Source: Candidatus Woesearchaeota archaeon
GTDB lineage: Archaea > Nanobdellota > Nanobdellia > SCGC-AAA011-G17 > UBA489
Length of the DNA stretch: 64,000 bases
Direction of reading: 5' to 3'
NCBI GenBank assembly: GCA_018655015.1
Contig: JABIKK010000008.1
Span: 8,791-72,790 of the forward strand
A program made the position numbers and the translations under genes. The notes under the pieces are model-generated. The model had not been told where the DNA came from. It saw nothing but the letters and a program-made list of their open reading frames with translations, and did no database searches. This document shows positions 3,632 to 60,294 of the stretch, piece by piece (position 1 is the first letter of the stretch; every line of letters begins with the position of its first letter).

Positions 3632-3761
3632 TTTATGAAATTTTGGTTCTGAGATACCTTTTAAGTATGTTGTTTGATATTTTTATAGAAATGACTTTAT
3701 TTATAAATTAAAGTTAGAAACTTTTAAATACTTAGACATATGAATTTGATAACACTCCGTA

Positions 3762-17489: not shown

Positions 17490-17567
17490 TTTTATCTTGT
17501 TCTAATGTGTTTTATTAATCTAAATCAACATAATCTTTAAATAGAGCTTTTGATTTGATGTAATTCT

Positions 17568-18470
17568 ATGAAAGACGTTATTATTCTTGGAGGCGGTGCT
17601 GCTGGATTGGGTGCTGCTTTGTATTCCGCTAGGTTTAGCTTGGATACTATTTGTATTGCTAAAGAGATGGGTGGAACAGGTAACATTGCTCATAAGGTGG
17701 ATAACTGGATTGGAGAGCCTGGAATAAGTGGTATGGATTTAATGGATAAATTTGCTAAACATGTTAAAGATTACAAAGTTCCGTTAATTACTGACATTGT
17801 TAAAGAAATAAAGAAGGTTGATGGTGGCTTCGAGGTTGTTTGTGAAAAAGAAACTTATCAAGGCAAAACTGTTATTTTTGCATTAGGTATGAAACATAGA
17901 GAACTTGGAATTCCTGGAGAAAAAGAATTTTCAGGAAAGGGAGTACATTACTGTTATACTTGTGATGGTCCGTTGTATAAGGATAGTACTATTGCTGTTG
18001 TAGGTGGAAGCGACTCTGCAGCCTTGGGTGCAATATTTATGAAAGATTATGCTAAGAAAGTTTATGTTATTTATAGAGGGGATAAATTAAGGGCCGAACC
18101 AATTAGTGCTAAACAAGTTTATGACGATGAAAAAACTGAAGTCATACATAATGCCAATGTTGTTGAAGTTGTTGGAGACAAGATGATGACTAAGGTAAAA
18201 CTAGATACTGGAAAAGAATTAGATTTAGATGGTTTGTTTATTGAAATTGGACATATTCCTTTGAATGAAATTGCAGAAAAAGTAGGAGTTAAATTGGATG
18301 GAAGGGGTTTTATTGATGTTAACAAAGAACAAGCAACTAATGTTGAAGGTTTCTTTGCTGCAGGAGATATAACTAATTCAACTAGTTTAAAACAATTTAT
18401 CACATCTGCTGCTGAAGGAAGTATTGCTGCACAAGGTGCGTATCATTATCTTACGAGGTTAAAAAAATGA
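17568..18470 (+). CDS. trxB: thioredoxin reductase-like FAD/NAD(P) pyridine-nucleotide disulfide oxidoreductase
   Basis: GGGAAGLGAALY FAD motif, redox-active CYTCDG, second Rossmann GGSDSAAL. Confidence 0.85.
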   Translation: MKDVIILGGGAAGLGAALYSARFSLDTICIAKEMGGTGNIAHKVDNWIGEPGISGMDLMDKFAKHVKDYKVPLITDIVKEIKKVDGGFEVVCEKETYQGKTVIFALGMKHRELGIPGEKEFSGKGVHYCYTCDGPLYKDSTIAVVGGSDSAALGAIFMKDYAKKVYVIYRGDKLRAEPISAKQVYDDEKTEVIHNANVVEVVGDKMMTKVKLDTGKELDLDGLFIEIGHIPLNEIAEKVGVKLDGRGFIDVNKEQATNVEGFFAAGDITNSTSLKQFITSAAEGSIAAQGAYHYLTRLKK

Positions 18471-27487: not shown

Positions 27488-28090
27488 ATGAAAGAGGATA
27501 GGCCGAATTGGATTTATATTGTATCTTTGATAGTATTTATTGGGCTAATCTTTATTGCTTATTTTTCTGGAGTTAGAGACTATGTTAATGATGGGATTAT
27601 TATGATCTTCTTATTATCTTTAGCATTTTTTGCATGGGATTCTTTAAAACTCAAACCTTGGGTATTTTTACTAATCGCTTTTGGATTTTTGTTACACAAC
27701 TTTGGAGTTTTTGGATTCTATAATGATTCTCCATTGTTTATTCAATGGGACCATATAACTCACTTTTTTGGTGAGTTGGCAATGGGGGCCTTTGTGTTTA
27801 ATTACATGTACCGGAGCGGTATTTTTGTTGGTGGGAAACTACAAACATTCTATTTATGTTCTATTGCAGTTTTAGCGGCTATGGGCTTTGGCGTTTTTGT
27901 GGAGTTTATGGAGTTTGGAGGTTATTTTCTTGTTGGTGAAGGTGCAGGAGTTTTAGGCCATGGTTTGGGAGATATAAATACAGAATTTATTAATAGTGAG
28001 TGGTTCAACACAATGTTTGATTTGATTTACAATTTTATTGGGGCTGTTGTTGGGGTTGTGATTGCCTATTTTGTTTCTAGAATTAAGTAA
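27488..28090 (+). CDS. polytopic membrane protein (about 6 TM), unknown function
   Basis: Hydrophobic profile, several conserved-looking His. Convergent with the CuA protein. Confidence 0.55.
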   Translation: MKEDRPNWIYIVSLIVFIGLIFIAYFSGVRDYVNDGIIMIFLLSLAFFAWDSLKLKPWVFLLIAFGFLLHNFGVFGFYNDSPLFIQWDHITHFFGELAMGAFVFNYMYRSGIFVGGKLQTFYLCSIAVLAAMGFGVFVEFMEFGGYFLVGEGAGVLGHGLGDINTEFINSEWFNTMFDLIYNFIGAVVGVVIAYFVSRIK

Positions 28091-28526
28091 CTATTATTTT
28101 TCCAGCCATATGACTATGTCCGGATCCACAGAACACGCTACAACTGAAACTGAATTCTCCAATTTTATCTGCTGTGAATTTTATATCTATACTTTGACCT
28201 GGTTGTAAATCTTCATTTATGTTAAATTCTGGGATTAGAATTCCATGTGTTACATCTAAACTAGTGATATGGAGGATTACTTCATTTCCGAGATCAACAT
28301 TAATTATTGAGGGATTAAATTCCCAATTTTTTGCAGTTATTTCGAATTCTTTTATGTTTGAAGTTGTTTTTGGAATGTTCTCATTTTCAATGACGATACT
28401 CATCCCAGGAGGTTCTTCAATTTCAGGAATTCCTTGCTGAGAGGGATTTTCTTCGGTAGCGGAAGGGTTGCATCCAATTAGCAGAACTAAGGTTGTTAGA
28501 ATTATGAGTATAAGCCCTCTTTTCAT
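28083..28526 (-). CDS. lipoprotein with a cytochrome c oxidase subunit II-type CuA cupredoxin domain
   Basis: Lipobox LLIGC. TSLDVTHGILIPEF (COX2 TSxDVxHSxxxP motif). 35 residues later, CSVFCGSGHSHM gives C-x3-C-G-x2-H-x2-M, the full CuA ligand set. Confidence 0.7.
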   Translation of the reverse strand: MKRGLILIILTTLVLLIGCNPSATEENPSQQGIPEIEEPPGMSIVIENENIPKTTSNIKEFEITAKNWEFNPSIINVDLGNEVILHITSLDVTHGILIPEFNINEDLQPGQSIDIKFTADKIGEFSFSCSVFCGSGHSHMAGKIIVT

Positions 28527-28682
28527 AGAATTTTGATATTTTTCTTTCTTTTAAATGAATTGTTTTTTTGATGAGTTAACAATTGTTTACTGGAGCATAT
28601 AAATCTTAATAAATGCTAATTGTTGCTTAAATAGACATTTACAAGCCTTTTTTGGCTTTATTACATTCTTTGGAGGAATAAA

Positions 28683-29261
28683 ATGACTGATGAAATTAAA
28701 TTAGAAATTGGAGAAATGGCTCCTAGTTTTACTGCTGAAGCTTTAGTTGGAAATGATACTAAAAAAGTAAGTCTTAGTGATTACAAGGGTAAGTGGGTAG
28801 TTCTATTTTTCTATCCTGCAGATTTTACATTTATCTGCCCAACAGAACTTGGAGATTTAGCTGATAAGTATGAGGAGTTTAAGGCAATTAACACTGAAAT
28901 TTTGAGTGTTAGTACTGATACTGCTTTTGTACACAAAGCTTGGAAGGATAATTCTGAAACAATTAAGAAAATAAATTTTCCAATGATTGCAGACCCTACT
29001 GGTAGGATGTGTAGGAATTATGGAACTTACATACGTGATGAAGGTTTATCTTTAAGAGGAACTTTTGTTATAGATCCTGAAGGAAATTTGAAAGCTTATG
29101 AATTACACGATAATTCTATTGGCAGAAGCACTAATGAGTTGTTAAGAAAAATTAAAGCTGCACAATTTGTTGAAGAGCACGGCGATCAAGTTTGTCCTGT
29201 TAATTGGGAACCTGGAAATGATACATTAAAACCTGGAATGGATTTAGTTGGTAAAATATAA
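28683..29261 (+). CDS. peroxiredoxin (2-Cys Prx/AhpC family)
   Basis: FTFICPTE peroxidatic Cys motif and resolving-Cys region VCPVNW. Confidence 0.9.
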   Translation: MTDEIKLEIGEMAPSFTAEALVGNDTKKVSLSDYKGKWVVLFFYPADFTFICPTELGDLADKYEEFKAINTEILSVSTDTAFVHKAWKDNSETIKKINFPMIADPTGRMCRNYGTYIRDEGLSLRGTFVIDPEGNLKAYELHDNSIGRSTNELLRKIKAAQFVEEHGDQVCPVNWEPGNDTLKPGMDLVGKI

Positions 29262-29844
29262 AATGGGATATAAATTACCTGAACTAAATTATGGCTATGA
29301 TGCTTTGGAACCATACTATGATGAGGGAACATTAGAATTACATCATACAAAACATCATGCGGGATATGTTGCTGGTTTGAATAATGCTGTTGCTAAGCTA
29401 AAAGAAGCTAGGGAGAATGGAGATTATTCTTTAGTTAAGCATTGGGAAAAAGAATTAGCATTTCATGGTGCGGGACATTACTTACATAGTTTGTTCTGGG
29501 AAAATCTAAGAGTTGGATCTGAGGACAATAAATCAACCGGTGCTGTTTTTGAAGCTATTGAAGATACCTTTGGTAGTTTTGATAAATTTAAGGAAGAGTT
29601 TTCCAAAGTAACTTTAGCTGTTGAAGGTTCTGGCTGGGGAGTTTTAGCTAGAGGTCCTGAAGGAGATTTGAAGATCTTTTCAGTTGAGAATCATCAAAAG
29701 GTTTTCATTCCGGGATATAAAATACTTTTAGTTTGTGATGTATGGGAACATGCTTATTACTTGAAGTATCAAAATAGAAGGGCCGAATGGATTGAGAACT
29801 TCTTTAAGATAGTTAATTGGGAAGAAGTTGAAAAGAGGTTTTAA
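29248..29844 (+). CDS. sodA: Fe/Mn superoxide dismutase
   Basis: HHTKHH and DVWEHAYY metal-ligand motifs. Start overlaps the Prx end. Confidence 0.9.
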   Translation: MVKYKMGYKLPELNYGYDALEPYYDEGTLELHHTKHHAGYVAGLNNAVAKLKEARENGDYSLVKHWEKELAFHGAGHYLHSLFWENLRVGSEDNKSTGAVFEAIEDTFGSFDKFKEEFSKVTLAVEGSGWGVLARGPEGDLKIFSVENHQKVFIPGYKILLVCDVWEHAYYLKYQNRRAEWIENFFKIVNWEEVEKRF

Positions 29845-30167: not shown

Positions 30168-31709
30168 TTGTTTATGTCTGAAGTGCCTAAGGAAATAAAG
30201 AAGATTTCTGATTTTGAGTGGGAGTTGCCTACAAGTTACAAGAAAGGAATGAATGTTCCGGCTAGAATTATTGCTAATGAATCTCTTTTGAAAGGGATGG
30301 ATAAGGGCGTTTTTGATCAAGTAACTAATATTGCTTGTTTACCTGGAATTCAGAAAAATGCTTTTTGTATGCCCGACGGTCATTGGGGTTATGGTTTCCC
30401 AATTGGCGGTGTTGCGGCGTTTGATGTTAATGAAGGAATAATTAGTCCTGGGGGAATTGGATTTGATATTAATTGTGGGATGAGATTAATTACAACTAAT
30501 TTAAGTTACAAAGAAGTTAAACCTCAGTTAAAGAAATTAGTCGATCATTTGTTCTTAACTGTCCCTTCTGGTGTTGGTTGTAAAGGTTTTTTGAAATTAA
30601 ATAATCAACAGTTTGATGACATCATGTTGGGCGGTGTTAAATGGTGCGTTGAAAATGGTTATGGTGTTGAAAGTGATATGTGGAACACTGAAGGTTATGG
30701 TTGTATTGAACAAGCGGATGTTGAAAAAGTTTCAGATAGAGCTAGAAAAAGAGGAATTAGTCAATTAGGGACATTAGGTTCTGGAAATCATTATTTAGAA
30801 ATACAACTAGCTAAGTCTGTAAATGTTTTTGATTCGGATGTTGCAAAAAAGTTTGGAATTATTGGGGATGATCAAGTTGTTATTATGGTTCATTGTGGAT
30901 CAAGAGGATTTGGACACCAGGTGGCTACAGATTATTTGAAAGTTTTTGATAAATCAATGGATAAGTTTGGGATAAAAATTAATGATAGGGAATTAGCTTG
31001 TGCCCCTTTTAATTCGGATGAAGGGCAGGATTACTACAAGGCAATGGCTTGCGCCTCAAATATGGCCTTTGCTAATAGACAAGTGATAACTCATAGGATT
31101 AGAGAAGCTTTTTCTAAAGTATTTAGTAAGAGTCAGGAACAGATGGATATGAATTTAGTCTATGATGTTGCGCATAATATTGCTAAAGTTGAAGAACATA
31201 AGATTGAGGGTAAGATGAAGAAAGTTGTTGTGCATAGAAAGGGTGCAACAAGAGCATTTCCTCCCAAACATAAAGAATTATGTCCTAAGTATAGGCCTGT
31301 TGGTCAACCAGTAATTTTGGGCGGAAGTATGGAGACTGGATCTCATTTGTTAGTTGGAACTCAAAAGGCAATGGATGTTACTTTTGGAAGTACAGCTCAT
31401 GGTTCTGGTAGAACAATGTCGAGAACTAAGGCTAAGAAAGAGTTTCAAGGAAAAGAATTACAAGAAAGAATGATGAAGAAAGGAATTTATGTTAGATCTT
31501 CAAGCATGCAAGGTTTGGCAGAAGAAGCTGGAAAGGCGTATAAAAATATTAATTCTGTCGTAGATGTTTTGAATGAGTATGGGATTGCAAAGAAAGTTGT
31601 TGGTTTTAACCCAATAGGGAATGTTAAAGGCCATGCAAGTTTATCCTACTTAAGTTTATTGCCTTTTTTTGCATTACTGTTTGTTTTATTAATGAACTTA
31701 GTTGTTTGA
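30168..31709 (+). CDS. rtcB: RtcB RNA 3'-phosphate ligase (tRNA-splicing ligase) with a ~25-aa hydrophobic C-terminal extension
   Basis: GHWGYGFPIGGV, NHY and HCGSRGFGHQV motifs. Likely true start is the ATG at 30174. The canonical C-terminus ...PIGNVKG ends at 31631, and the ORF runs on into the 3' end of the convergent homing-endonuclease gene. Confidence 0.9.
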   Translation: MFMSEVPKEIKKISDFEWELPTSYKKGMNVPARIIANESLLKGMDKGVFDQVTNIACLPGIQKNAFCMPDGHWGYGFPIGGVAAFDVNEGIISPGGIGFDINCGMRLITTNLSYKEVKPQLKKLVDHLFLTVPSGVGCKGFLKLNNQQFDDIMLGGVKWCVENGYGVESDMWNTEGYGCIEQADVEKVSDRARKRGISQLGTLGSGNHYLEIQLAKSVNVFDSDVAKKFGIIGDDQVVIMVHCGSRGFGHQVATDYLKVFDKSMDKFGIKINDRELACAPFNSDEGQDYYKAMACASNMAFANRQVITHRIREAFSKVFSKSQEQMDMNLVYDVAHNIAKVEEHKIEGKMKKVVVHRKGATRAFPPKHKELCPKYRPVGQPVILGGSMETGSHLLVGTQKAMDVTFGSTAHGSGRTMSRTKAKKEFQGKELQERMMKKGIYVRSSSMQGLAEEAGKAYKNINSVVDVLNEYGIAKKVVGFNPIGNVKGHASLSYLSLLPFFALLFVLLMNLVV

Positions 31710-32547
31710 CCGGTTTTTCAATGTCTTTGTATTTTACTTTTTTTGATTTGTTTATTTTATAAATAAGATTTACTTTTGCTATTTTTTCTTTGTGTCTAAT
31801 TGGTAAGATATTTAGAAGTTTGAGAACTTCGTTTTTTCTACAAATTTCAATGACATAATAATCCTTGTTGTATCGGAATATTTTCCCATTATGCGTACTT
31901 GTGTCTCCTTTTGAGTGATTTTTATGCATCGAAACGAAATATCCATTATCTTGTAAAATTTCTTTTATTTTGATTAATCTTTCAAGTTTTTGACTGAAAA
32001 GTCTAACTACAAACTGAAAATATTCTCCTGTTTTTCTCACCAAAATACTTCCATCTGCATCAATGTAACCCGCTAAAAAATGGAAGAAATTTTCTTTATC
32101 TATCCAATTTGGGATTCTATTTTCCTTTGAATTTATGAGGAAATTGAAGCTCTCTAAACAAATGTGTGACTGGAATCTATATTGTTCCTCTTTTTTCGTT
32201 AACTTGTAATTTGTTATGCCATATTCTTTGAACGATTTAAGTAAAAGGTCTCCAAATAAGGGATGTGTTGTGTGAGTAATTAATTTTAAAGTGTAGTTTG
32301 ATTTTTTTACAGGCGTTAAATCGCCCATCACTAGTCCAAACAGGTAAGCCTTTTCTTTAGATTCCACATTAAATTTCTTTTTTTCTTTAATGTGTCCCAT
32401 TGAGATGAGAGAATCTCTACTATTCCTGATTTTTATATTATTTTTTCCTAATGTTTTTCTTACAGTACTTCTATTTATTTCTAGATTCCTAGATATTTCT
32501 CTTATAGGCCTATTGTGGGCATATAACTTTATGATTGTTGATTCCAC
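31624..32547 (-). mobile_element. free-standing double-motif LAGLIDADG homing endonuclease gene
   Basis: N-terminal HTH-like region, motif 1 YLFGLVMGDL, motif 2 FLAGYIDADGSILV. It is antisense to its rtcB/archease neighbours, so it is not an in-frame intein. Confidence 0.75.
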
Positions 32548-33967: not shown

Positions 33968-34450
33968 GTGTTAACGTTACAGTTTGTTCCGTATGGGGAG
34001 ATTGAGAATCTTTCTTCAAAAAATAGAATAGAAAAATTATTGGATATTGTTAAGCAAGATAAGATAGTTCTACTACAAGGTAGATTGAAACCTGAAGAAG
34101 AGACTATGTTGATCATGGAGACTATGGCTCAAATAAACAAGAAGTTTAGAGGTGTAGAGATTTGTACAATCTATCCTGAAGAGAATAATTTACAATTTTT
34201 TAATAAGATAAAAAAAGAAATGGTTAAGTTCTTGATTGGAAATAGGGATGGAGTTACTATAATCGGTCCATCTACTGTTGTTAAAGAAGTTAGAAGGAAT
34301 CCTAATAAGATTGAGTTGTTTACCTTGCCAGGTATGAAGGGTTTGAAGTCAAAATCTATTGCAAGAAGGAAAACAACTAAGAAAAAAATAGCATCTAGAA
34401 AGAGAACTACTAGGACAGTGAAGAGAACTGTTAAAAGGAGACGTAGATAA
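33968..34450 (+). CDS. conserved hypothetical protein with an Arg/Lys-rich C-terminal tail, likely co-operonic with the GTPase
   Basis: 4-nt intergenic gaps to both neighbours. Globular 120-aa domain plus tail KSKSIARRKTTKKKIASRKRTTRTVKRTVKRRRR. Confidence 0.5.
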   Translation: MLTLQFVPYGEIENLSSKNRIEKLLDIVKQDKIVLLQGRLKPEEETMLIMETMAQINKKFRGVEICTIYPEENNLQFFNKIKKEMVKFLIGNRDGVTIIGPSTVVKEVRRNPNKIELFTLPGMKGLKSKSIARRKTTKKKIASRKRTTRTVKRTVKRRRR

Positions 34451-34833
34451 TGCCTCACCAATGTGTAAGATGTTCTAAGATGTATGAAGATGGTTCTAAA
34501 GAAATTCTTACTGGTTGCTCTTGTGGTGGAAAATTCTTTTTCTTCATGAAAGAAAAATCTGTTGAAGATGCCAAAAAGATTACTACTCAATTAAGTACTG
34601 TTGACAAAGTTCAAATGGAAAAAGATGCCATGGAACTTGTTGGTGAAAAGAGCGATAATGAAAGTAAAAAAGATTTACCTGTTGTTTTAGACTTAGAATC
34701 AATTCGTGTTTTGAAGCCAGGACATTTTGAGATAGATTTAGTTGATTTGTTTAAGGGCGAACCTTTGGTCTATAAGTTATCTGATGGGAAGTATATTATT
34801 GATATTGCCTCTACATTCAAGAAAGAAGAATGA
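34450..34833 (+). CDS. zinc-ribbon protein (CxxC...CxCG), third gene of the GTPase cluster
   Basis: MPHQCVRCSKMYEDGSKEILTGCSCGG at the N-terminus. Start overlaps the previous stop. Confidence 0.5.
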   Translation: MPHQCVRCSKMYEDGSKEILTGCSCGGKFFFFMKEKSVEDAKKITTQLSTVDKVQMEKDAMELVGEKSDNESKKDLPVVLDLESIRVLKPGHFEIDLVDLFKGEPLVYKLSDGKYIIDIASTFKKEE

Positions 34834-34838
34834 TTGTA

Positions 34839-34912
34839 TGGGGACACCAGGATTTGAACCTGGATACGCCGCTCTGGAGGCGGCAACACTAACCGGGTTA
34901 TGCTATGTCCCC
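34839..34912 (-). tRNA. tRNA-Trp (anticodon CCA)
   Basis: Reverse complement GGGGACATAGCAT...GCCGC-CTCCAGA-GCGGC...CCAGGTTCAAATCCTGGTGTCCCCA. 7-bp acceptor stem, T-loop TTCAAAT, anticodon loop with CCA. 74 nt. Confidence 0.85.
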
Positions 34913-36565: not shown

Positions 36566-39500
36566 TTGTATAAGAAGTATATTACAAAAAAAGGGAAGAA
36601 GGTAGGGCCTTATTATTATGATAGTATTAGATTGAAGAATGGTCGAGTTAAATCTGTTTATCTTGGTAGTGATGAGAAGAAAGCTAGACAGAAATTAAAA
36701 GTTTTAAAGAAAGAAAGTTCTAAGGCTGTTCATAAAAGAAGTAGTGCAACTCTTAAAAAATCTTTAAATCCTAGATCAAACGCCAAATTGATTGGCGATC
36801 ATAATGTTCATGTGAGGGATAGAGTTTTCTTATCTATTGTTTTAATTATGATGTTAGTTAGCTTTATGCATTTTGGAGGTATTATTGGTGGAGATTCTAG
36901 TGAAAGTATTAATGGTGGGTTTGTAAATGAGTTTAGGACTTTCTCTGATATGGCTCGCGAAGGTTTTTCAGAAAGTAATAAAATAACAGGAGAAGTTATT
37001 TTTTCAAATAGAAATGAAATTACTGGAGAATCTATTTTTTCTAAGTCTGTTGATCCCGAAGAACATTCTCATGATGTTTCTTTTTTGGTAAGTGAAAGCT
37101 CAGAGTATAGGTTAAATTTTGAGAATGTTGAAAAATTATTAAGTTTGAAGGTTTCAGGAAGAATTGCTTATTTTGAAGGGGGGATTGCTAAGGTTTTCTT
37201 ATCCGATGTTGACTCTGGGGATACCTATTTAGTTTATGATAGTGAATTATCTAAAGATGAAAATATTTTGGATGCTGTAGGTATAACTGGGAGTGTTGTG
37301 TTAGAGGAAAAGTTAGAGAAATCAAAGAGTTACAAAGATATTGTGTCTTCATTAACGGGGTTCAATGTTGTTGATTCTAAAGGCAAGTTTGTGAATTATG
37401 GGCTATCTAATGGGAGCAATGGTACCGCGATTATTGATTTAAGAAACAAAGATGTTTTTGAAATTGAGTATCCTAAAAAAGAGGGATGGATTGCTTATGA
37501 GGAATATTCTTCAAGAGGTTTAATTGAACCAACTAATATCTCTTTTGAAAGGGTGTTTGGGTTTGACTTTAGTGGATTGAACATTTCTAGGTTTAATGAA
37601 ACGAATACATCATTTAGTACTTCGCCAGAAGGCTCCTATCTTTATGGTTGTAGTTTTTGGGATTTTGAATTTGGAATTTGTTTATCTGATTGGGTTTTCT
37701 TTTTTGATTTAAACAAAACTAATAATTATACTGTTAGTTTGACTACTGAAGTAATGGCCTTTGCTGAAGGCATTTTAGATTTGGATGACGAGGAAGAGAA
37801 AAAACTTGAGGAAGTAGTTGAAGAAGTTGAAGAAAACAAAACAGACTTTTTGATTGATATTTTAGATGTTTTGAACATTACTAGTTATGGTATTGATTCT
37901 TTTGATTCTATTTGTGAAGGTACTTGTAAGATGAAGAATGTTTGGGGTAATAATTTTCTTTTGAAGGTTTATGTTAAGGATTCTATTTTAGATTTAGATT
38001 TAATCGAAACAGAATCTGAGGTTTTAGAGGGAGGAGTGTATTCTCTTTCCATCATTGATGGAATTGGAAGCATTTTATTGGGAGGAGGGGATGGTTCTGA
38101 ATTAGTGGGGGGTGTTGATGATCAAGTTGGAGGGATTACTGAATTCTTTGATAATGGTAATTTTACTGAAGAAGTAGTGCAATTTGGGGCTGTAATTGAT
38201 CAACCTGTTAAGTGGAAGAAAAAAATAATTTTAGATTCTGCAAAGAAAGATGTTGAATTTGAGATCCCTGATACTGCAGAAAATATCACTTTAAAGAAGA
38301 TTGTTAGTGGGAAAATATTGAATGTTATATCTGCAGGATTGGATGAGGGCAATGGTACTATTATCAACTTAACAGAGGGAAATAGTGGGTTTTCTGATAA
38401 TCTATTGAATTCTATGACAGGTAATGCGATAACTGGTATGGCTGTTGCGGAGACACCTTTGTTGGAGAATATTTCTTCAAAAGTCTTGAGTGTTAATGTG
38501 AGTAATAATACTGATACTATTTTTGTGGACGATTTAGTAAATACTGTGGAAGTTGAATATGAAACTCCAGGCCCAAGATTGGAAGTTCAAAATAAAACTA
38601 ATGGGTTTAGAGTTGTTTTAAAATCTGATATTGAGTATGTGAATATTTTTACATTCCTTGATATTCCAGAAACTCCTATGAATAAAGTAAGACTTTACCA
38701 AGTTACAGTGGATAATGTTACGGGGAGAGAATATAGGATTAAACATAATTATACTTTGTATGGGTCTAATAATACTGGATTGGCGAATTATATTGAATGG
38801 ATGATTCCTACTTCAGGAGATGATACTTTTGATATTCAAACTGAAATAAATGCAACGGCGGCAATTCATTTGGATGAGAACTATGTTTATATCAGTGATA
38901 TTTTTGATGAAGTACAATTTGAGGATGTTATATGGAGTGAGACAATCTATAGGGATGATTATGTAAGGGTTACTTTTGAAAAAAACTTAACGAATGGTAG
39001 GTTGATTGATGTGATTGCGAGAAGTAATGGTTCTTTATCTTATTTTGAAATTTATGAAGCTAATACGACTAATTTGGTGGGTAAATCTTCAGTTGTTGAT
39101 TATCCAGAAGTTCAATATATTGAAGTGAGTGGTTTGAGTAAACCTACAGATGTATTTGACTTTAAATTTATGAACTTGGTTAGTGATCCTGAAGACTATA
39201 AGGCTTGTGTCAAGTTGGGTTATTGGGTTTGTGACAGAAATCCGGAATCTTCAGAGAACTGTCATGCGGAGGTAGAAGAAGATTGTAATTCTCCAGTTTA
39301 TGATCTAAATAGAACTTCAACTATGGAGTTTGATTTTATTCACGACGATGTTATTAATTCTACACAGGCGGAAGGTATGATCGTATATATTCAATCAGAA
39401 AGTGCGACACCCAGATATAGATTTTGGAATGAATCTGATGATTTCGAGGCTGAACAAAGTGCTCTGGCTACGGGAAGTGATGGGACTGATGATATTGCAT

Positions 39501-42500
39501 GGGTTGTAATAAAAGGGAATCATGAAAGAAATGAGATGATTCTTGGTACTCAAGATATTGTTGAGGATATAAATATACAAATATATAATGGTACGGCTTG
39601 GAATAATTTAACAGAAGTTACAACTACGGCAGAAATTGAAAATCAAAGGCAATTTGATATTGCTTATGAAGATATATCTGGTGATGCTTTAATTGTTTAT
39701 GAGAATAGTAATGGGCACACTAATACAGATGTAGCCTATAGGATTTGGAATGGTACTGGAATTTCTCCCGAAACTGTTTTTACAGAAGCATCTAACAATG
39801 GAGAGATTCTTTGGGTTAAGTTATTTTCAGAACCGGGAACGGATAATATAATGTTACTAACCCAGAATGATGCCCCTTCAAGCTTTGATCTTTATGCTGT
39901 AGTGTGGAATGGTACTGGTTTTGATACTGATACTGAAGAGATTTTGAATGGGACTGTGGCTGATACAACTCAGCATATGGATTTTAGGTGGGAATCTAAA
40001 ACTAGGGGGGAAGGTTTAGTCATGTATGGAGTGGGAACTAATATCATGTGGAGGACTTATTCTTCTGCTACTGGTTGGGGGAAAGAGAATCCGACTGATT
40101 TGGGTCAATCTGATCGTTCAACTAGATTGTGTTCTGATCCGACGTCCGACCATATAGGTCTTATTCTTTTTGATGGTGGGAATGATATTAATGTTAATGT
40201 CTTTGATGGAACTTCGATGCTTGGGGGGGCACCTAGTCAAGAGGGTTTTGCGGAGTCTCACGGCGTGTATAACTCCAATGTAGGCTGTGCATGGGTTAAT
40301 AGTTCTACAGCAGTTTTTGGATTCGTAGATAATGGATTATTAGCTATTGACTGGATTACTTTTTCAAAAACCGCCCTTTGGAGTACTGGTAATTTAGGAA
40401 CATCTACTTCGACTACAACTAATTTTGCAACTGACGATATTGAAGCTTTAAGGTTTGTAAAACATCCTACCACTGATGAGATAATGGTTGCAGCAATAGA
40501 TAATTTGGAAGATTTAACTACAATTAGATGGGAGGGAACTACACCTATTGTTCCAGGTCACTCTTTATTAGAATCAGCAACTCAAGTAGATCAAGGGCAT
40601 ACTGAAGACGCAAGATTCGATTGGTTTAGATATGATCCTACCCCGAACGTTACTAGTTTAAATCCGACTGGAGAAACCTTTACTGTTTCAACTGCAATCT
40701 CATTAAATGCTACTATTGCTGATAACTTAGTAGTGGATGATGTATTAGCAAATGTTACACATCCAAATGCTACTGTTGAACAGGTTGTACTTGCTGATGC
40801 TGATGCTGATGGGGTATATAATGTTTCATTTACTGGGGCTAGTAATACTGGAACTTATACTGTAAGAATAATTGCTAATGATACAAGTACACATAAAAAT
40901 ATTAATAGTACTGAGACTACAACATTTATAGCTGCGGATGCTCCTGGTGGTGGAGATATTCCTCCAACTGTAACATTAAATGGGCCTGCTAATGGTACGG
41001 TTTATACTGAAGTAGGAAAAATTGTTTTGAATGCGACGGTTGAAGATGCAGAGGATAGTACATTGTTTGTTAGAATTTATGGTAGTAATGGAACCACTTC
41101 TGCTGAATTAGATTCAAAGGATTTGCTTTACTACAATGAATCCGATGCTAATGCTTCTTTTGTAGATTATAATTGGACTGCGCCAGTTTTGGATGCTTCT
41201 GATGATTATCTGTTGTTAGTTCATTTAGATAATAATTCACTTGATTTTGGGGAAAGTTATGATAGCGTCTTTGATTTTGCACCTGCTGATGGGGTACAAA
41301 ATGGAACAATTCAATCTCTTGGTGCAATAAATATTTCTCGGGGAAAGTTTGGAGGGTCTTATTTTTCTACAGCAAGTGGGGCAGATGACACTAATCGTGT
41401 GGATTTTGGAGATCAAGATACATGGATTGATGAAGGGAATATATCCTATTTAATGTGGGTTAAACCCAGAAGTATAACTGCTACAAAGGGTATTTTGGAT
41501 AAAAGGTTAGTTGAGACATTTAATGCAGATGGATTTAGTATTAGACAAGTTGACAGAACTCTGAGAATACGGTTTGATCAGGAAACTTGGGATACAACTG
41601 ATGTTTTTAATGTAAAAACTTGGACACATATTGCCGTTGTTTTTAATGCTAGTAATGGGGCCTTTTTATATCTTGACGGGAGACTAAACGGTTCCTATGG
41701 ATTCGATAATATTACAGCAAATAATATTAATTTTGCGATAGGCAATGCAAGGTCTAATCTGGAGTATACTCATCCTTTTGCAGGATGGATTGATGAAGTT
41801 GCAATAATTAATAGGACTCTTGGGGCAGATGAGGTTCTTGATGCATACAGATTGAAATCTGGAAATCATACTTGGTACTATCAGGTTAATGATTCTGGCG
41901 GGAATAAAACGCTAAGTAATTCGCAATGGTTCTTGATAGATAGGAAACCTAATGTAACTTCATTGTCTTTTACTCCAACTGGACCGAATACAACTCTTGG
42001 ATTGAATTGTACTTTTACACCTTATGATGATTTGGATAGTACTTTGAATGCAACAATAAAATGGTATAATGGGAGTAATACATATTCAACTACTGTTGTT
42101 GAAGGAATGACTTCAGGCAGCGCCTATACTCATAATGTATCTGCTTATGTGCATAGGCATTACCAAGAATGGAATTGTAGTGTGTTGACTACTGATCGTC
42201 AAGGGAGTAATGCAAGTAAGATTAATTCGACTACAAGATCGGTTGTTAACTTTGAGCCCGGAGCACCTACATTGAATACACCTATAGAAACTACAACTTA
42301 CATTGATAGGGTTCCAACATTCAATTGGACGCCTCCTGATGAATTTGGTAAATTGCCAAACACTGGTGATGGTGGTTGTGGAGCTACGTTCTTCTGTGAT
42401 GGTAGGACTTCTGATCCAGATGAAGATCAGGTGACTTATTCATTAAATATAAGCTGTACTACTGGACCAAGTGTATGTGATGATAATCAGCAATTTACTG

Positions 42501-43147
42501 TAACAGAAAATATAACAAATTGTGATTCTAATGGTAATAGTTATTTAGACAATCAAGACAATTGTAATTTCACATTACCTAATGCATTAAGCTATTTCAT
42601 AGATGACGGAAAATATTATACTTGGACAGTCATAACTTCTGATCCAAATGTTACCGAGCCAGATACTCCTGTGGAATTAAACTATAATATTAGTGTTTAT
42701 GTTGCAATAGCTGTTTTGAATAAAAATGCTAACTTCGGAACAATGATTCCTGGTACTACAAATAGTACTTCTGGGTGTAGTCCCTCGGCGGAGTGTGAAC
42801 CACAACCAATTTGGTTACAGAATGCTGGTAACACAGACTTTGATGTGAATTTAACTGGGCCGAGTGATGCTTTGTTTACAGCAATATCTAATCCTCATGC
42901 GATTAGTTATTTTTCTGTGAATGTTAACAATGGTACTGAAGGACAATCATTTAATATGACTGACTCAATTGTTAGCTATACTGCTCTGCCTGCTGTGGGG
43001 ACAGATATATTATTTGTTAATGACTTTGGATGGAATGATAGTGCTGATGAAATTACGATTGATGTTAATGTTTCTGTTCCGGCAAATGAAACTGAAGGAA
43101 CAAAGGGGACTTCGTTAGCATTTACAGGGTGGTATTACATTGCTTAA
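36566..43147 (+). CDS. giant (2193 aa) membrane-anchored surface protein with LamG/concanavalin-A-like domain, many N-glycosylation sequons, and a basic N-terminal cytoplasmic segment
   Basis: N-terminal 90 aa K/R-rich, then TM FLSIVLIMMLVSFMHFGGIIG, then a large extracellular region. The LamG-like segment is WIDEGNISYLMWVKP...WTHIAVVFNASNGAFLYLDGRLNGS...FAGWIDEVAIINRTL. Confidence 0.8.
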   Translation: MYKKYITKKGKKVGPYYYDSIRLKNGRVKSVYLGSDEKKARQKLKVLKKESSKAVHKRSSATLKKSLNPRSNAKLIGDHNVHVRDRVFLSIVLIMMLVSFMHFGGIIGGDSSESINGGFVNEFRTFSDMAREGFSESNKITGEVIFSNRNEITGESIFSKSVDPEEHSHDVSFLVSESSEYRLNFENVEKLLSLKVSGRIAYFEGGIAKVFLSDVDSGDTYLVYDSELSKDENILDAVGITGSVVLEEKLEKSKSYKDIVSSLTGFNVVDSKGKFVNYGLSNGSNGTAIIDLRNKDVFEIEYPKKEGWIAYEEYSSRGLIEPTNISFERVFGFDFSGLNISRFNETNTSFSTSPEGSYLYGCSFWDFEFGICLSDWVFFFDLNKTNNYTVSLTTEVMAFAEGILDLDDEEEKKLEEVVEEVEENKTDFLIDILDVLNITSYGIDSFDSICEGTCKMKNVWGNNFLLKVYVKDSILDLDLIETESEVLEGGVYSLSIIDGIGSILLGGGDGSELVGGVDDQVGGITEFFDNGNFTEEVVQFGAVIDQPVKWKKKIILDSAKKDVEFEIPDTAENITLKKIVSGKILNVISAGLDEGNGTIINLTEGNSGFSDNLLNSMTGNAITGMAVAETPLLENISSKVLSVNVSNNTDTIFVDDLVNTVEVEYETPGPRLEVQNKTNGFRVVLKSDIEYVNIFTFLDIPETPMNKVRLYQVTVDNVTGREYRIKHNYTLYGSNNTGLANYIEWMIPTSGDDTFDIQTEINATAAIHLDENYVYISDIFDEVQFEDVIWSETIYRDDYVRVTFEKNLTNGRLIDVIARSNGSLSYFEIYEANTTNLVGKSSVVDYPEVQYIEVSGLSKPTDVFDFKFMNLVSDPEDYKACVKLGYWVCDRNPESSENCHAEVEEDCNSPVYDLNRTSTMEFDFIHDDVINSTQAEGMIVYIQSESATPRYRFWNESDDFEAEQSALATGSDGTDDIAWVVIKGNHERNEMILGTQDIVEDINIQIYNGTAWNNLTEVTTTAEIENQRQFDIAYEDISGDALIVYENSNGHTNTDVAYRIWNGTGISPETVFTEASNNGEILWVKLFSEPGTDNIMLLTQNDAPSSFDLYAVVWNGTGFDTDTEEILNGTVADTTQHMDFRWESKTRGEGLVMYGVGTNIMWRTYSSATGWGKENPTDLGQSDRSTRLCSDPTSDHIGLILFDGGNDINVNVFDGTSMLGGAPSQEGFAESHGVYNSNVGCAWVNSSTAVFGFVDNGLLAIDWITFSKTALWSTGNLGTSTSTTTNFATDDIEALRFVKHPTTDEIMVAAIDNLEDLTTIRWEGTTPIVPGHSLLESATQVDQGHTEDARFDWFRYDPTPNVTSLNPTGETFTVSTAISLNATIADNLVVDDVLANVTHPNATVEQVVLADADADGVYNVSFTGASNTGTYTVRIIANDTSTHKNINSTETTTFIAADAPGGGDIPPTVTLNGPANGTVYTEVGKIVLNATVEDAEDSTLFVRIYGSNGTTSAELDSKDLLYYNESDANASFVDYNWTAPVLDASDDYLLLVHLDNNSLDFGESYDSVFDFAPADGVQNGTIQSLGAINISRGKFGGSYFSTASGADDTNRVDFGDQDTWIDEGNISYLMWVKPRSITATKGILDKRLVETFNADGFSIRQVDRTLRIRFDQETWDTTDVFNVKTWTHIAVVFNASNGAFLYLDGRLNGSYGFDNITANNINFAIGNARSNLEYTHPFAGWIDEVAIINRTLGADEVLDAYRLKSGNHTWYYQVNDSGGNKTLSNSQWFLIDRKPNVTSLSFTPTGPNTTLGLNCTFTPYDDLDSTLNATIKWYNGSNTYSTTVVEGMTSGSAYTHNVSAYVHRHYQEWNCSVLTTDRQGSNASKINSTTRSVVNFEPGAPTLNTPIETTTYIDRVPTFNWTPPDEFGKLPNTGDGGCGATFFCDGRTSDPDEDQVTYSLNISCTTGPSVCDDNQQFTVTENITNCDSNGNSYLDNQDNCNFTLPNALSYFIDDGKYYTWTVITSDPNVTEPDTPVELNYNISVYVAIAVLNKNANFGTMIPGTTNSTSGCSPSAECEPQPIWLQNAGNTDFDVNLTGPSDALFTAISNPHAISYFSVNVNNGTEGQSFNMTDSIVSYTALPAVGTDILFVNDFGWNDSADEITIDVNVSVPANETEGTKGTSLAFTGWYYIA

Positions 43148-51648: not shown

Positions 51649-52554
51649 ATGAATGATGTAGATCTTGTAACGGAACTTTATAATGATTTAAAGAGAGATT
51701 TGTCTAAAGTTGAAGGTGAAATGGGTGAGATGGTTAGATACGCCGTCTTAAGAAAAGGTGGATTGTTAAGGCCCCAACTTGCAATTAGATCTGGGGAAGT
51801 TTATGGCGTTCCTATGGGTCATATGAAAGGCTCCGCATTACCTCTTGAAAATGTTCATGCAGCTACATTAATTTTAGATGACTCGTCGGCAATGGACGAT
51901 TCAGATACTAGAAATGGAGAAGTTGCATTTCATAAAGTTTATAGTTTAGATAAAACGATATTAACTGCGCAACATTTAACCTCCTCTATAGCTCCTGAAC
52001 TTAATTCTAATAATCTTTATCTTAGCCCAGAAATAAGGATTAAGATTCAAGCTGAATATGCTAAGGCTGCTGAAGGATTATGCATTGGACAATTAGATGA
52101 TTTACATCATAAGCCAGAGAGTTTGGAAGATGTGGTGGAATTGCATCGTAAAAAAACAGGAGTTTTATTTGCTGCAGCAACAGTTATTGGTGGTCTTGCA
52201 GGTAGTGCACCCAAAGAAGAAATTGAAATTTTAAGGGCATTGGGTCATAATTTGGGAATTGCTTACCAAATGGGGGATGACATTTACGACGTTTTAGGTA
52301 ATCCTAAGTTGGGAGGTAAGCCAATTGGTCAAGATGGGAATAAAATTACCGTGTTAGGGTTTATGGAAGTTCATAAGGCTGTTGAGCTTTGGAAAGGTTT
52401 TTATGATAGGGCAGGAAATGATATTGATAATTTGTCCTCTAGATTATTAGCTAGGGAAGAACAAGGATTATTTACAGGTATAGCTTCAGCAGAACCTTTG
52501 CGCCATATGTTGGAAGTTATTAGGAATAAACAAGAAGGCATTATGGCTCTCTAA
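51649..52554 (+). CDS. short-chain trans-polyprenyl diphosphate synthase (GGPP/FPP synthase family)
   Basis: First Asp-rich motif LILDDSSAMDDSDTRNG and second Asp-rich motif GIAYQMGDDIYD. Confidence 0.8.
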   Translation: MNDVDLVTELYNDLKRDLSKVEGEMGEMVRYAVLRKGGLLRPQLAIRSGEVYGVPMGHMKGSALPLENVHAATLILDDSSAMDDSDTRNGEVAFHKVYSLDKTILTAQHLTSSIAPELNSNNLYLSPEIRIKIQAEYAKAAEGLCIGQLDDLHHKPESLEDVVELHRKKTGVLFAAATVIGGLAGSAPKEEIEILRALGHNLGIAYQMGDDIYDVLGNPKLGGKPIGQDGNKITVLGFMEVHKAVELWKGFYDRAGNDIDNLSSRLLAREEQGLFTGIASAEPLRHMLEVIRNKQEGIMAL

Positions 52555-54132: not shown

Positions 54133-54207
54133 TAGCGAGGGCTGGATTTGAACCAGCGACCTCCGGGTTATGAGCCCGACGGACACTCCTAACTGTCCTA
54201 CCTCGCT
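54133..54207 (-). tRNA. initiator tRNA-Met (anticodon CAU), archaeal type
   Basis: Reverse complement AGCGAGGTAGGACAG...TCGGG-CTCATAA-CCCGG...GCTGGTTCAAATCCAGCCCTCGCTA. A1:U72 pair, three consecutive G:C pairs closing the anticodon stem, CAT anticodon. Confidence 0.8.
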
Positions 54208-54250: not shown

Positions 54251-55042
54251 TTATTCAGAAAGTTTAGCTCTAATTTGTTCAGGGAGGTAAATACTAAAAT
54301 TACTGTCTGGGTGATAAGTTGCGAATCCTGATTCGGATCTGTCTAATCCTCTTCTGGATTCATCTTTTTTTAATGCTCTTTTAGCTGCAAACATTGCTTG
54401 ATCTGCATTTTTAATTGTCTCCACCATACTGTTTTCTTTAGGTGAATATAATGCGGCTCCAATTGAAGATGGTTGGCATTTTAGGTCTTGATTCATTGCA
54501 CCTGCAACTCTAAATCCAATATTTTCTAATGCTTGGTATGTTTTAACTCTTGGGAGTAGAACTAAAAATTCATCTCCGCCAATTCTGCCCAATTCTGAAT
54601 CTTCTGTTAATTTTCTGAAAACAATATCTTCTTCTAATGAATATGTCCTTCTATCTTTACTGAGTTCATATACGGTTCTTCTAGATTTTCTTCTATCTCC
54701 TTTGTGACCTGTACGGAATATGTTGGATAAAGTCTCTGCAGTGTCAGTTAATACTTGGTCTCCTGCATCATGACCCTGAAAATCATTCACTTCTTTGAAA
54801 CCCATTAGGTCAAAAAATAGTACTCCTGTGGGTGTTTGAGTTGTCTCAATTTCTTCAACAAGGTGATCAATGCCACTTCTTGCAAGTACTTGAGTTAAGC
54901 TATCTGTGTTCATTGCTTGAAATAGAATTTTTTTTGCATCTTTGTCTGGATATGCTCTGTCATACTCAAATAGTTCCCTGATCCATTCTTGACTAGATGG
55001 TTTGCCATTTGGCATGAATCCTTCTTCGTGTTTGTTTGTCAT
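54251..55042 (-). CDS. GGDEF-domain protein (diguanylate cyclase-like), stand-alone
   Basis: VLFFDLMGFKEVNDFQGHDAGDQVL matches the GGDEF N-terminal consensus (DxDxFKxxNDxxGHxxGDxxL). Intact RIGGDEFLVLLP active-site motif, with a ~35-aa insertion before it. Confidence 0.7.
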   Translation of the reverse strand: MTNKHEEGFMPNGKPSSQEWIRELFEYDRAYPDKDAKKILFQAMNTDSLTQVLARSGIDHLVEEIETTQTPTGVLFFDLMGFKEVNDFQGHDAGDQVLTDTAETLSNIFRTGHKGDRRKSRRTVYELSKDRRTYSLEEDIVFRKLTEDSELGRIGGDEFLVLLPRVKTYQALENIGFRVAGAMNQDLKCQPSSIGAALYSPKENSMVETIKNADQAMFAAKRALKKDESRRGLDRSESGFATYHPDSNFSIYLPEQIRAKLSE

Positions 55043-55179
55043 TTTAAATTCCTCTTCAAGGAGTAATCTGTATTCTATATTCTCTAGTTTGTAGTATATA
55101 AGTGTTTCTAGATGCTATTCACTGCACTTACCGAGGATTTGGGCCAACTTTAATAATTCTTGGAGATTCTTTATTTTAA

Positions 55180-55938
55180 ATGAATAAATCTTTATCTGAA
55201 AGAAATAAGAGAAATGTTAATGTTAGGTGGAACAAGCAATATGAATTATTAAGGAAGCATATTGAGAATTTCCCTAAAGATAGATATTTATTGTTAAAAA
55301 CACGTTTGTCTTCTAATATTGCTGGTGACGGAAGTGTTAGTGTAAGGAAAGAAAATAAAAATCAAAAAAGTGTTCATTATACTATTTCTTTTTATCCCGA
55401 TGAAATGAATATGTTAAATTGTTTTCTTAGGGATTTTGAGGAACTCTATTTGAAAAAGCCTACTGTAAAAAATATGGGGAAATATTATACTGTTCGTGTT
55501 GATTCAAAATTTGCCGTTTTAGATTTATTGGAAGAAACTAACTATGGTTCTTTAGAGTGGAAACTACCGGAAAATTTATTGAAAAATAAAAAACTAAAAG
55601 TTGAATGGTTGAAAGCTTTCTTTGATTGTGAATCTCACGTTGCTAAAAGCTGTATTCAATTACAAAGTGTAAATCAAAAGGGTATAAACCAAATAAAAGG
55701 ATTACTTGAAGAAATAGGCATATCTTGTAAGATCTATAGTTATGAAAGAAAAAATAAAAATTGGAATACAAACTATATCCTTTGCATAATGTCTAAGGAA
55801 GAGAGACTGAAGTATCTTGATAGGATAGGTTTTAATAATCTAAAAAAACTGAAATCTCTAAAAGAGACGCTTTATGCCAGGATGCCCGAGTTGGTTAAGG
55901 GGCCGGTCTCGAAAACCGGTGTCCGCAAGGACATGTAG
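55180..55938 (+). mobile_element. LAGLIDADG-type homing endonuclease-like gene (divergent motifs) whose 3' end overlaps tRNA-Ser
   Basis: Motif 1 LLKTRLSSNIAGDGSVSV and motif 2 WLKAFFDCESHVAKS in the usual two-domain spacing. The last ~20 codons read through the first 63 nt of tRNA-Ser(CGA). Confidence 0.55.
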
Positions 55939-55959
55939 GTTCAAATCCTGCTCCTGGCG
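55876..55959 (+). tRNA. tRNA-Ser (anticodon CGA), class II with long variable arm
   Basis: GCCAGGATGCCCGAGTTGGTTAAGGGG-CCGGT-CTCGAAA-ACCGG-variable arm GTCCGCAAGGAC-...TTCAAAT...TCCTGGCG. Acceptor 7 bp. Confidence 0.8.
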
Positions 55960-56014
55960 CTTATTCTTAAATGAAAAGGATTAAATTTTTAAACATAAAT
56001 TCTAATTTAATGCT

Positions 56015-59550: not shown

Positions 59551-60294
59551 TTATTTACTTATCTTTAATTTGAAAAAGCAAAAGAAAGGGATTTTCATTA
59601 TCCACTCTTCTAATTCAGGATATTTTTCTTTCCACTCTTGCAGGGGTTCACTTTCAACAAATTTTTCTAAAATAAAGTTATTCTTTAGGAGAACCTCCAA
59701 ATAATCTTGTATTGTTCTAGGAAAATCAATAAATTCTTTTCCTCCACCAGCGATATTACAATAAAGGACATTTCTATCAAAATAATTATGTGTAGGTACA
59801 AACTTACCGTCCTCATTATCACGGAACATATTACTTACTGGATGAGGTGCTGAAAAAATTAGTAAACCTCCATCCTTGAGAACCCTTTTTAATTCCTTAA
59901 ATACTCCATCTAAATTCTCAACATGATCCAACATTAGAGAGGAAGTTATAATATCAAAACTATCATCTACATAATCCAATTCTGAAACGCTTCCGACTTT
60001 AAAGTTCCCTTCCGAGCAATGTTTTTGTGCCAAATCAATCATTTTTGGGCTTAAGTCAACTCCAAAACCTTCAGCACCACGTCCAATATATTGTTTTAGA
60101 TGTATACCTGGACCACAGCCAACATCTAGAAGTTTTTTTCCGGTAAGGTTTTGCGGTACTAAATCAAAAATGATAGGTTGTTCTATTTCTCTATTAAAGA
60201 ATCCAGTTATACCTTTTTCTTCCGTTCTAGTAAAAAGAAAATTGTCTGCATTTCCATCATAAAGTCTTTGTAATGTCTTCTCATCCGAATTCAT
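59551..60294 (-). CDS. class I SAM-dependent methyltransferase
   Basis: Motif I LLDVGCGPGIH, motif post-I GVDLS, Rossmann-fold MTase layout. Confidence 0.75.
   Translation of the reverse strand: MNSDEKTLQRLYDGNADNFLFTRTEEKGITGFFNREIEQPIIFDLVPQNLTGKKLLDVGCGPGIHLKQYIGRGAEGFGVDLSPKMIDLAQKHCSEGNFKVGSVSELDYVDDSFDIITSSLMLDHVENLDGVFKELKRVLKDGGLLIFSAPHPVSNMFRDNEDGKFVPTHNYFDRNVLYCNIAGGGKEFIDFPRTIQDYLEVLLKNNFILEKFVESEPLQEWKEKYPELEEWIMKIPFFCFFKLKISK

Follow-up and report, generated by a model that had tools for sequence, protein, structure and literature searches.

In the current study, we analyzed a 64-kb stretch of DNA (hereafter the window) from a Candidatus Woesearchaeota archaeon and followed up one gene on it, which encodes a stand-alone GGDEF protein of 263 amino acids (coding sequence at 54251..55042 on the minus strand in the list of open reading frames (ORFs), with an ATG start and the stop codon at 54251-54253). 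The gene genuinely belongs to the chromosome of a marine archaeon of the Woesearchaeota (DPANN), and on the strength of its sequence features the enzyme probably works as a diguanylate cyclase, i.e., it would produce cyclic di-GMP (c-di-GMP). That molecule has not been described in archaea and its cyclases are almost exclusively bacterial (PMC10249747). With a conserved archaeal gene at hand, it can be tested directly whether a signal thought to be limited to bacteria is used by any archaea.

The protein matches the GGDEF profile PF00990 in two stretches (E = 2.4e-22, 79.9 bits with a curated cut-off of 23.8; Pfam) and the NCBIfam model TIGR00254 (76.9 bits, cut-off 37.4), and reaches none of the NCBIfam equivalog models. 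No second domain was found with Pfam or NCBIfam, the sole other Pfam match being Cas10-Cmr2_palm2 at 14.5 vs. the 27 bits needed. The AlphaFold2 (AF2) model of the protein (predicted local distance difference test score (pLDDT) 87.6, predicted template modeling score 0.83) has a GGDEF-type palm fold, and its best match in Foldseek is GTP-bound PadC (E = 1.7e-12). A Cas10 or CRISPR polymerase palm was considered as a candidate and rejected, as the profile match is below threshold and the combination of such a match with cas gene context was not found. A first-pass annotation, made from the sequence letters, had described a true GGDEF protein in an archaeal host, to be distinguished by a search with PF00990 from palm domains of the primase/polymerase or Cas10 type, and had called it stand-alone, with an intact catalytic motif, an unusual basic insertion ahead of the GGDEF loop and no RxxD product-inhibition site (I-site). 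All of these calls are borne out by the results reported here, including the lack of a sensor domain in the protein and of an EAL or HD-GYP partner among the window ORFs scanned.

The catalytic motif is intact in the window protein, where FFDLMGFKEVNDFQGHDAGDQVL occupies residues 76-98 and the GGDEF of the RIGGDEF motif lies at residues 155-159 (nt 54566-54580). In a mapping to PleD that is consistent with the published numbering, PleD residues D327/K332/N335/D344/E370/K442/R446 correspond to D78/K83/N86/D95/E158/K221/K225. These seven PleD residues are the ones that predict cyclase competence (PMC6629876). Conservation was assessed over 67 aligned proteins, i.e., the window protein, five close relatives and 61 other GGDEF proteins of lower identity. 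D78, N86, G90, H91, G94, R153, G156, E158, F159, G195, D214, and K221 are invariant in all 67, and K83, D87, D95, G155, and D157 are conserved in at least 90%. Within the close family, none of the residues checked for binding of metal, guanine or phosphate varies, and the motif G155-G-D-E-F159 is likewise invariant in its six members; the motif is also kept in 11 of 11 full-length family members. Active-site residues are retained even in family members that are only 27-45% identical, save at K83 in one of three allelic classes (designated A, B, and C), namely class C. The position of D95 carries Asp in 64 of the 67 sequences and in every family member. Hypr cyclic GMP-AMP (cGAMP) synthases have Ser rather than Asp at the corresponding PleD D344 position, Asp being the GTP-specific state; the Hypr signature is thus missing throughout the family.

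What sets the family apart is a basic insertion at residues 110-147 (54602..54715, minus strand), at which both the Pfam and the PDB alignments split. D95 and G156 are 60-63 residues apart in the six close family members vs. 24 (range 24-28) in the 61 others, which places 36-39 extra amino acids, slightly more than the roughly 35 first noted, exactly at the I-site loop. Residues 110-147 hold 12 Lys or Arg and 7 Asp or Glu and include the conserved motifs R110-T, DRR, DRRxY, and D139-IVF. In the class A AF2 model, pLDDT falls below 50 at residues 114-129, and the insertion is probably disordered. The Arg of RxxD has an invariant counterpart in R110, while H113 replaces the Asp and is followed by the insertion. 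Five residues upstream of GGDEF, where RxxD is expected, the window protein reads LTEDSELGRIGGDEF and has no such motif; strict RxxD is absent in class A, and RVYD occurs only in some class B members.

The insertion divides the GGDEF domain into a first half at residues 45-109 (54716..54910, minus strand; the Pfam stretch 45-113 corresponds to profile positions 2-74), which holds D78, K83, N86, and D95, and a second half at residues 148-231 (54350..54601, minus strand), supported by alignments to 5m3c and PadC, with R153, G155-F159, K221, and K225. Extensions on both sides of the domain are likewise specific to the family. The N-terminal extension, residues 1-44 (54911..55042, minus strand), comprises two helices predicted at 18-30 and 36-44 by AF2 in class A and class B, ahead of the DxLT start of the domain; P11, S17, and W20 are invariant in the close family, and this element could possibly serve as a stalk or in dimerization, judging from the models. 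The C-terminal extension, residues 232-263 (54254..54349, minus strand), is predicted to form a β-hairpin and a helix, with block-mean pLDDT of 87-96 in the class A model and the same elements in the class B model, and carries a conserved E237-x-G239, an ExG motif retained by most of the more distant family members. The tail after K221 measures 37-42 amino acids in the family vs. a median of 15 (range 4-272) in the other GGDEF proteins compared. An AF2 model of the divergent class B protein P0006 (pLDDT 88.8) reproduces the insertion as well as both terminal extensions.

The 66 nt upstream of the gene (55043..55108, minus strand) were examined in an alignment of 120 upstream nt from eight lineages. 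A TATA-like TTATATA lies at 55095-55101 within the conserved AAACACTTATATAC, and a conserved GAGG Shine-Dalgarno sequence at 55051-55054 (-12 to -9). Between the promoter element and the Shine-Dalgarno sequence, most relatives carry an operator-like inverted repeat of 8 bp, CTATATAC-TAGA-GTATATAG, which is perfect in the lineage designated L013, has one mismatch in L019, L011, and L009, and is degenerate in the window. These signals fit a control of the sensor-less enzyme that would act at the level of transcription.

In the mechanism that we propose, two subunits would pair with one GTP bound to each. N86 and D95 would recognize guanine, D78 and E158 would coordinate Mg2+, and K83, R153, K221, and K225 would contact the phosphates, such that the dimer could condense two GTP into c-di-GMP and two pyrophosphates by the canonical metal-dependent mechanism. 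Classical RxxD feedback would be lacking, with the product-inhibition site interrupted by the basic insertion. Because the protein has no sensor domain and its RxxD site is interrupted, we infer that control would come from transcription, via the conserved archaeal promoter and the operator-like palindrome, from the lineage-specific insertion, and from the N- and C-terminal extensions, the latter acting through dimerization or a partner. Our data show that the gene is authentic and document its fold, the conservation of its residues, its synteny and purifying selection on it; catalysis, product identity and dimerization are, like the mode of regulation, what we infer for this enzyme.

Several points weigh against such a cyclase. 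Isolated GGDEF domains are often poorly active, and the protein has no recognizable dimerization or sensor domain. The position of PleD R446 is taken by K225, a conservative Arg to Lys change that is invariant in the close family, and the position of K83 by Ser in class C (P0122/P0271). No c-di-GMP signaling circuit is apparent from the window: neither EAL, HD-GYP nor PilZ domains were found by Pfam among about 50 window ORFs of at least 120 amino acids, nor a c-di-GMP riboswitch by Rfam, which found only four tRNAs in the 64 kb. The organism is known only from metagenomes, and there is no archaeon in which c-di-GMP has been detected so far (PMC10249747, PMC8646023). Finally, the ratio of nonsynonymous to synonymous substitution rates (dN/dS) of the GGDEF gene is 3-12-fold that of its neighbors over the same pairs and its divergence is not clock-like, which would also fit a role other than housekeeping signaling.

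These points bear on an unlikely alternative, in which the protein keeps the GGDEF fold without being a c-di-GMP synthase. It could then yield a different product, e.g., linear pppGpG, cGAMP or some other dinucleotide, or act as a sensor of GTP or a dinucleotide, with its output passing through the insertion and extensions. The missing turnover and receptor genes among the scanned window ORFs, the conserved DRR...DRRxY loop in place of the disrupted I-site, the Lys at the PleD R446 position and the loss of K83 in class C would all agree with this, and there are precedents in the Hypr GGDEF cGAMP synthases and in YybT, a GGDEF protein with ATPase activity (cited in PMC10249747, PMC8646023). However, the residues used to predict cyclase competence are retained, with Lys for Arg at the R446 position, and purifying selection acts on them; the position of D95 is occupied by Asp throughout the family and not by the Ser of Hypr enzymes, and degenerate GGDEF domains of the receptor type normally lose the GGDEF motif, which this family keeps. 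A diguanylate cyclase is the reading that we prefer.

The family appears to be small. When 1.84 billion cluster representatives were searched exhaustively with a profile, about seven clusters at the family level were returned, followed by generic GGDEF proteins; three of these clusters have members named Woesearchaeota and one derives from Tara Oceans. One family member, P0272, was found on 170 contigs. Our scans of genome and metagenome contigs were keyed to two peptide patterns and hence undercount the family; among GTDB species representatives they recovered two, both of them Woesearchaeota metagenome-assembled genomes (MAGs).

Across related lineages the gene is under purifying selection and evolves fast: its dN/dS is 0.26 for the window vs. 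L013 and 0.22 for L011 vs. L016, compared with 0.02-0.07 for Dus, RNase HII, and SMC over the same pairs (up to 0.09 over all pairs computed), so we regard it as constrained yet rapidly evolving. The divergence into the three allelic classes is discordant with that of the flanking genes. Identity to the window is 93% for housekeeping proteins and 85% for the GGDEF protein in L013, 84% and 64% in L009, and 77% and 63% in L007, vs. 87% and 43% in L011, 82% and 43% in L019, 88% and 38% in L016, and 71% and 30% in L017. Import of a distant allele was considered as the cause of the discordance between classes A and B and is not favored, as synonymous divergence, roughly estimated, is similar to that of the flanking genes: for the window vs. 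L016, the proportion of synonymous differences is 0.54 in the GGDEF gene and 0.50-0.58 in the flanking genes, rough values at 40% amino-acid identity. Instead of such an import, the values hint that the gene underwent episodic acceleration in place.

Rapid, allele-like evolution beside a variable hotspot would be explained if the protein were the signal generator of a conflict system, either antiviral or engaged in host interaction, rather than a housekeeping cyclase. The elevated dN/dS, the three divergent classes that do not follow flanking-gene similarity, the toxin-antitoxin and Fic genes adjacent in L017 and the homing endonucleases in two lineages point in this direction. We nevertheless consider such a role improbable. 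PADLOC found nothing for the GGDEF protein and five neighbors, and for one further neighbor, the methyltransferase at 59551..60294, only a match to mad2 that is that of a generic methyltransferase domain; no effector is consistently adjacent, the variable genes differing in every lineage; no related lineage examined lacks the GGDEF gene, which distinguishes it from typical defense cargo; and other hypothetical genes and the polyprenyl synthase nearby diverge just as fast.

The GGDEF gene occupies the same site in each of these lineages. It is flanked by a tRNA-Met(CAT) gene as its conserved right-hand neighbor, directly downstream (54133-54207, minus strand), and by a divergent tRNA-Ser(CGA) gene as its conserved left-hand neighbor (55876..55960, plus strand), both identified by ARAGORN and Rfam. 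The order tRNA-Ser(CGA)/GGDEF/tRNA-Met/Dus/RNase HII is found in L007, L009, L011, and L015. The tRNA-Met gene lies at the same position in these four as well as in L013 and L019, where tRNA-Ser(CGA) was matched only partially, and is intron-bearing in L016 and L017, the former of which also has the tRNA-Ser(CGA) neighbor. The series GGDEF, tRNA-Met, Dus, RNase HII, polyprenyl synthase, and SMC is kept in L007, L009, L011, and L013, with extra genes inserted in L016. Even L017, with a GGDEF protein that is 27-30% identical and housekeeping proteins at about 70%, retains a neighborhood of DPH6, PDDEXK, GGDEF, Dus, and RNase HII in this order, with other genes in between. A variable segment starts beyond tRNA-Ser(CGA), comprising DUF3604, TPM/LemA, or MazE/ParE and Fic depending on lineage, and the GGDEF gene lies outside of it. 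In L017, the MazE/ParE toxin-antitoxin pair and the Fic-domain gene are found at 5868-7648, in the variable segment beside the GGDEF gene. The family is inherited vertically at one locus, and the arrangement tRNA-Ser(CGA)/GGDEF/tRNA-Met/Dus/RNase HII is ancestral.

Between tRNA-Ser(CGA) and the GGDEF gene lies a free-standing LAGLIDADG homing-endonuclease gene (55180..55938, plus strand; LAGLIDADG_3, PF14528, E = 3.2e-13). It occurs only in the window lineage and in L016 (67% identity). As it is absent from four other related lineages (L007, L009, L011, and L013), it represents a recent insertion abutting the tRNA gene, secondary, lineage-specific and separate from the GGDEF system. Its ORF overlaps the 5' part of tRNA-Ser(CGA) by 63 nt, and the L016 homolog (3612-4395 region) ends exactly at the 5' end of the tRNA. 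L016 contains a second LAGLIDADG-like ORF of 205 amino acids between tRNA-Met and Dus (5857-6474, minus strand), the last codons of which run antisense to the tRNA-Met 3' end. At this locus, it seems that genes for homing endonucleases have repeatedly inserted next to tRNA genes. The tRNA-Met gene of L016 (5740-5875) is itself interrupted, by 37 nt after nt 31 and 24 nt after nt 40, and is missed by ARAGORN; that of L017 (10566-10670) has a single insertion of 30 nt after nt 15, whereas the tRNA-Met of the window is intron-free. These insertions look like archaeal non-canonical introns gained or lost among close relatives.

The first-pass annotation had placed the gene in an island bracketed by the two tRNA genes, next to the homing endonuclease, and had suggested that it may have been acquired horizontally; in this reading, a bacterial cyclase would have been brought in recently on a mobile island along with the endonuclease. 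The bracketing tRNA genes and the LAGLIDADG neighbor are real, GGDEF domains are overwhelmingly bacterial, all organism-named matches outside the family are from bacteria (at most 37% identity), and the region beyond tRNA-Ser(CGA) does differ among lineages. Yet the same order of tRNA-Ser(CGA), GGDEF, tRNA-Met, and Dus recurs in lineages whose housekeeping proteins are 77-94% identical to those of the window, the gene stays outside the variable segment, and the endonuclease, although correctly recognized as a neighbor, is a later arrival in two lineages and no mark of an island. The suggested comparison of base composition and codon usage with the neighbors revealed no deviation: relative to the other 50 window genes, GC content is 0.360 (z +1.15), GC content at third codon positions 0.216 (z -0.90), and synonymous-codon likelihood has z +0.32, all within about 1.2. 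No att-like repeats were found, no integrase in the Pfam and PADLOC scans, and no relatives of the protein in viral contigs (IMG/VR). The patchy presence, atypical composition, integrase and direct repeats of a tRNA end that characterize tRNA-associated islands are not seen here, and there is no close bacterial relative, identity falling from 43% within the family to at most 37% outside. A recent acquisition is accordingly very improbable. As the organism-named matches outside the family are scattered over phyla at this low identity, no bacterial donor can be named; the likely scenario is an ancient bacterial origin of the family with a donor that is not identifiable.

The archaeal identity of the host is evident from gene content. 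The window encodes FttA/aCPSF1 with a KH_TffA domain, a proteasome subunit, RtcB and Archease, and OapB/OapC, as well as a protein with fused asparagine-synthase and diphthamide-synthase domains (DPH6-like), SMC, RNase HII, and Dus, with archaea-specific genes on both sides of the GGDEF gene. An identical GGDEF protein was called on 12 contigs from several independent assemblies, the longest of 265.9 kb, and was assembled independently with the same neighbors in at least six samples; NCBI names its source as Candidatus Woesearchaeota archaeon (two accessions). Orthologs are found at this locus in another eight lineages, which come from different projects. Galperin and co-workers noted that GGDEF and HD-GYP ORFs in archaeal MAGs possibly represent bacterial contamination and left the matter to "future studies" (Galperin et al., PMC5847659; Galperin & Chou, bioRxiv 10.1101/2021.11.05.467447), but for this gene a contaminated or chimeric bin has a negligible chance of being correct and is untenable given the archaeal gene content on both sides in the 64-kb window, itself part of a 265.9-kb contig, the identical arrangement in independent assemblies, the orthologs at the same locus, the archaeal-type introns in the neighboring tRNA-Met of L016 and L017, and the native codon usage. 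Even taken together, the island and contamination readings retain a very small share of the probability.

GGDEF genes are considered all but absent from archaea, or suspect where they turn up, and such sequences in archaeal data have been noticed before. Braun et al. noted more than 300 BLAST matches, mostly from Asgard and DPANN, without analysis (PMC8646023), and GGDEF goes unmentioned in a comparative genomics study of Woesearchaeota (PMC8421398). We found no description of this family in the literature searched, although NCBI already auto-annotates the GGDEF protein. The domain call as such is thus not new; what is new is the evidence for a native, conserved archaeal gene and for a distinct subfamily with an insertion replacing the I-site. 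The family provides a clean counter-example to the contamination view at the genomic level: its synteny, native composition and intact catalytic residues, together with purifying selection, extend across Woesearchaeota lineages down to about 70% housekeeping identity. Since the protein has only 263 amino acids and is soluble, a single recombinant protein makes it possible to ask whether an archaeon can make c-di-GMP. Should the enzyme prove active, the insertion and the lack of a known receptor nearby would point to new mechanisms of regulation and read-out. More tentatively, and with a little less than even confidence, we propose that marine Woesearchaeota run an archaeal pathway based on c-di-GMP or a related dinucleotide, with a sensor-less cyclase controlled via the I-site-replacing insertion and receptors unrelated to PilZ, EAL, or HD-GYP. 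Such a pathway would constitute the first bona fide c-di-GMP system outside Bacteria (Dictyostelium aside) and would overturn the assumption that GGDEF genes in archaeal MAGs are contamination. A further possibility is that an episymbiont uses the signal to act on a bacterial partner.

Further features were noted elsewhere in the window. The polyprenyl synthase beside RNase HII (51649-52554) is only 26% identical to that of L013 with flanking genes at 92-94%, which suggests that this position underwent gene replacement. A further ORF that matches LAGLIDADG_3 and HTH_28 lies between RtcB and Archease (31624-32547, minus strand) and overlaps the 3' end of the RtcB ORF on the opposite strand. The OapB and OapC genes (33968-34912) adjoin tRNA-Trp, and a replication origin may lie near them. 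A cluster of oxidative-stress genes at 28083-29844 and 16833-18470 encodes a cupredoxin/COX2-like protein, a peroxiredoxin, an Fe/Mn superoxide dismutase, a DJ-1/PfpI protein, and a pyridine nucleotide-disulphide (thioredoxin-reductase-like) oxidoreductase, consistent with DPANN life in oxic sea water. An ORF of 2193 amino acids at 36566-43147 (plus strand) has no NCBIfam match and is followed downstream by several genes for conserved hypothetical proteins, of which one or more begin with a signal-peptide-like N-terminus; all relatives share the synteny of these genes.

Among known systems, the closest in layout to the archaeal GGDEF protein include SiaD of Pseudomonas aeruginosa (PDB 7e6g) and DgcZ/YdeH of E. 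coli (3tvk, 4h54), which likewise combine a short N-terminal helical element with one GGDEF domain. The archaeal protein is not a SiaD ortholog, as it scores 70.9 bits vs. the SiaD equivalog cut-off of 290. In contrast to these enzymes, it has neither a CZB zinc domain nor a known SiaC-like partner, and it carries the 36-39 amino acid insertion replacing the I-site loop and the extra C-terminal hairpin and helix, in an archaeal host. It differs from cyclases of the PleD/WspR type in lacking a REC domain and in that the Arg of RxxD is kept (R110) but the Asp is lost, with the insertion following. The Hypr GGDEF cGAMP synthases (Geobacter GacA, Bdellovibrio Bd0367) are distinguished by Ser where the archaeal family has Asp (D95). 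More remote comparators are other nucleotide cyclases and polymerases with a palm domain, namely the Cas10 palm, class III adenylyl/guanylyl cyclases, and Y-family polymerases. From complete archaeal genomes, a single GGDEF protein has been reported, RCIX2274 (CAJ37382) of Methanocella arvoryzae (PMC5847659; bioRxiv 10.1101/2021.11.05.467447). Both genes are archaeal, but RCIX2274 is known from one genome only and represents a long fusion of bacterial type (REC-PAS-PocR-GGDEF-HD-GYP), whereas the Woesearchaeota protein, going by these descriptions, stands alone and belongs to a lineage-wide, syntenic orthologous family in DPANN.

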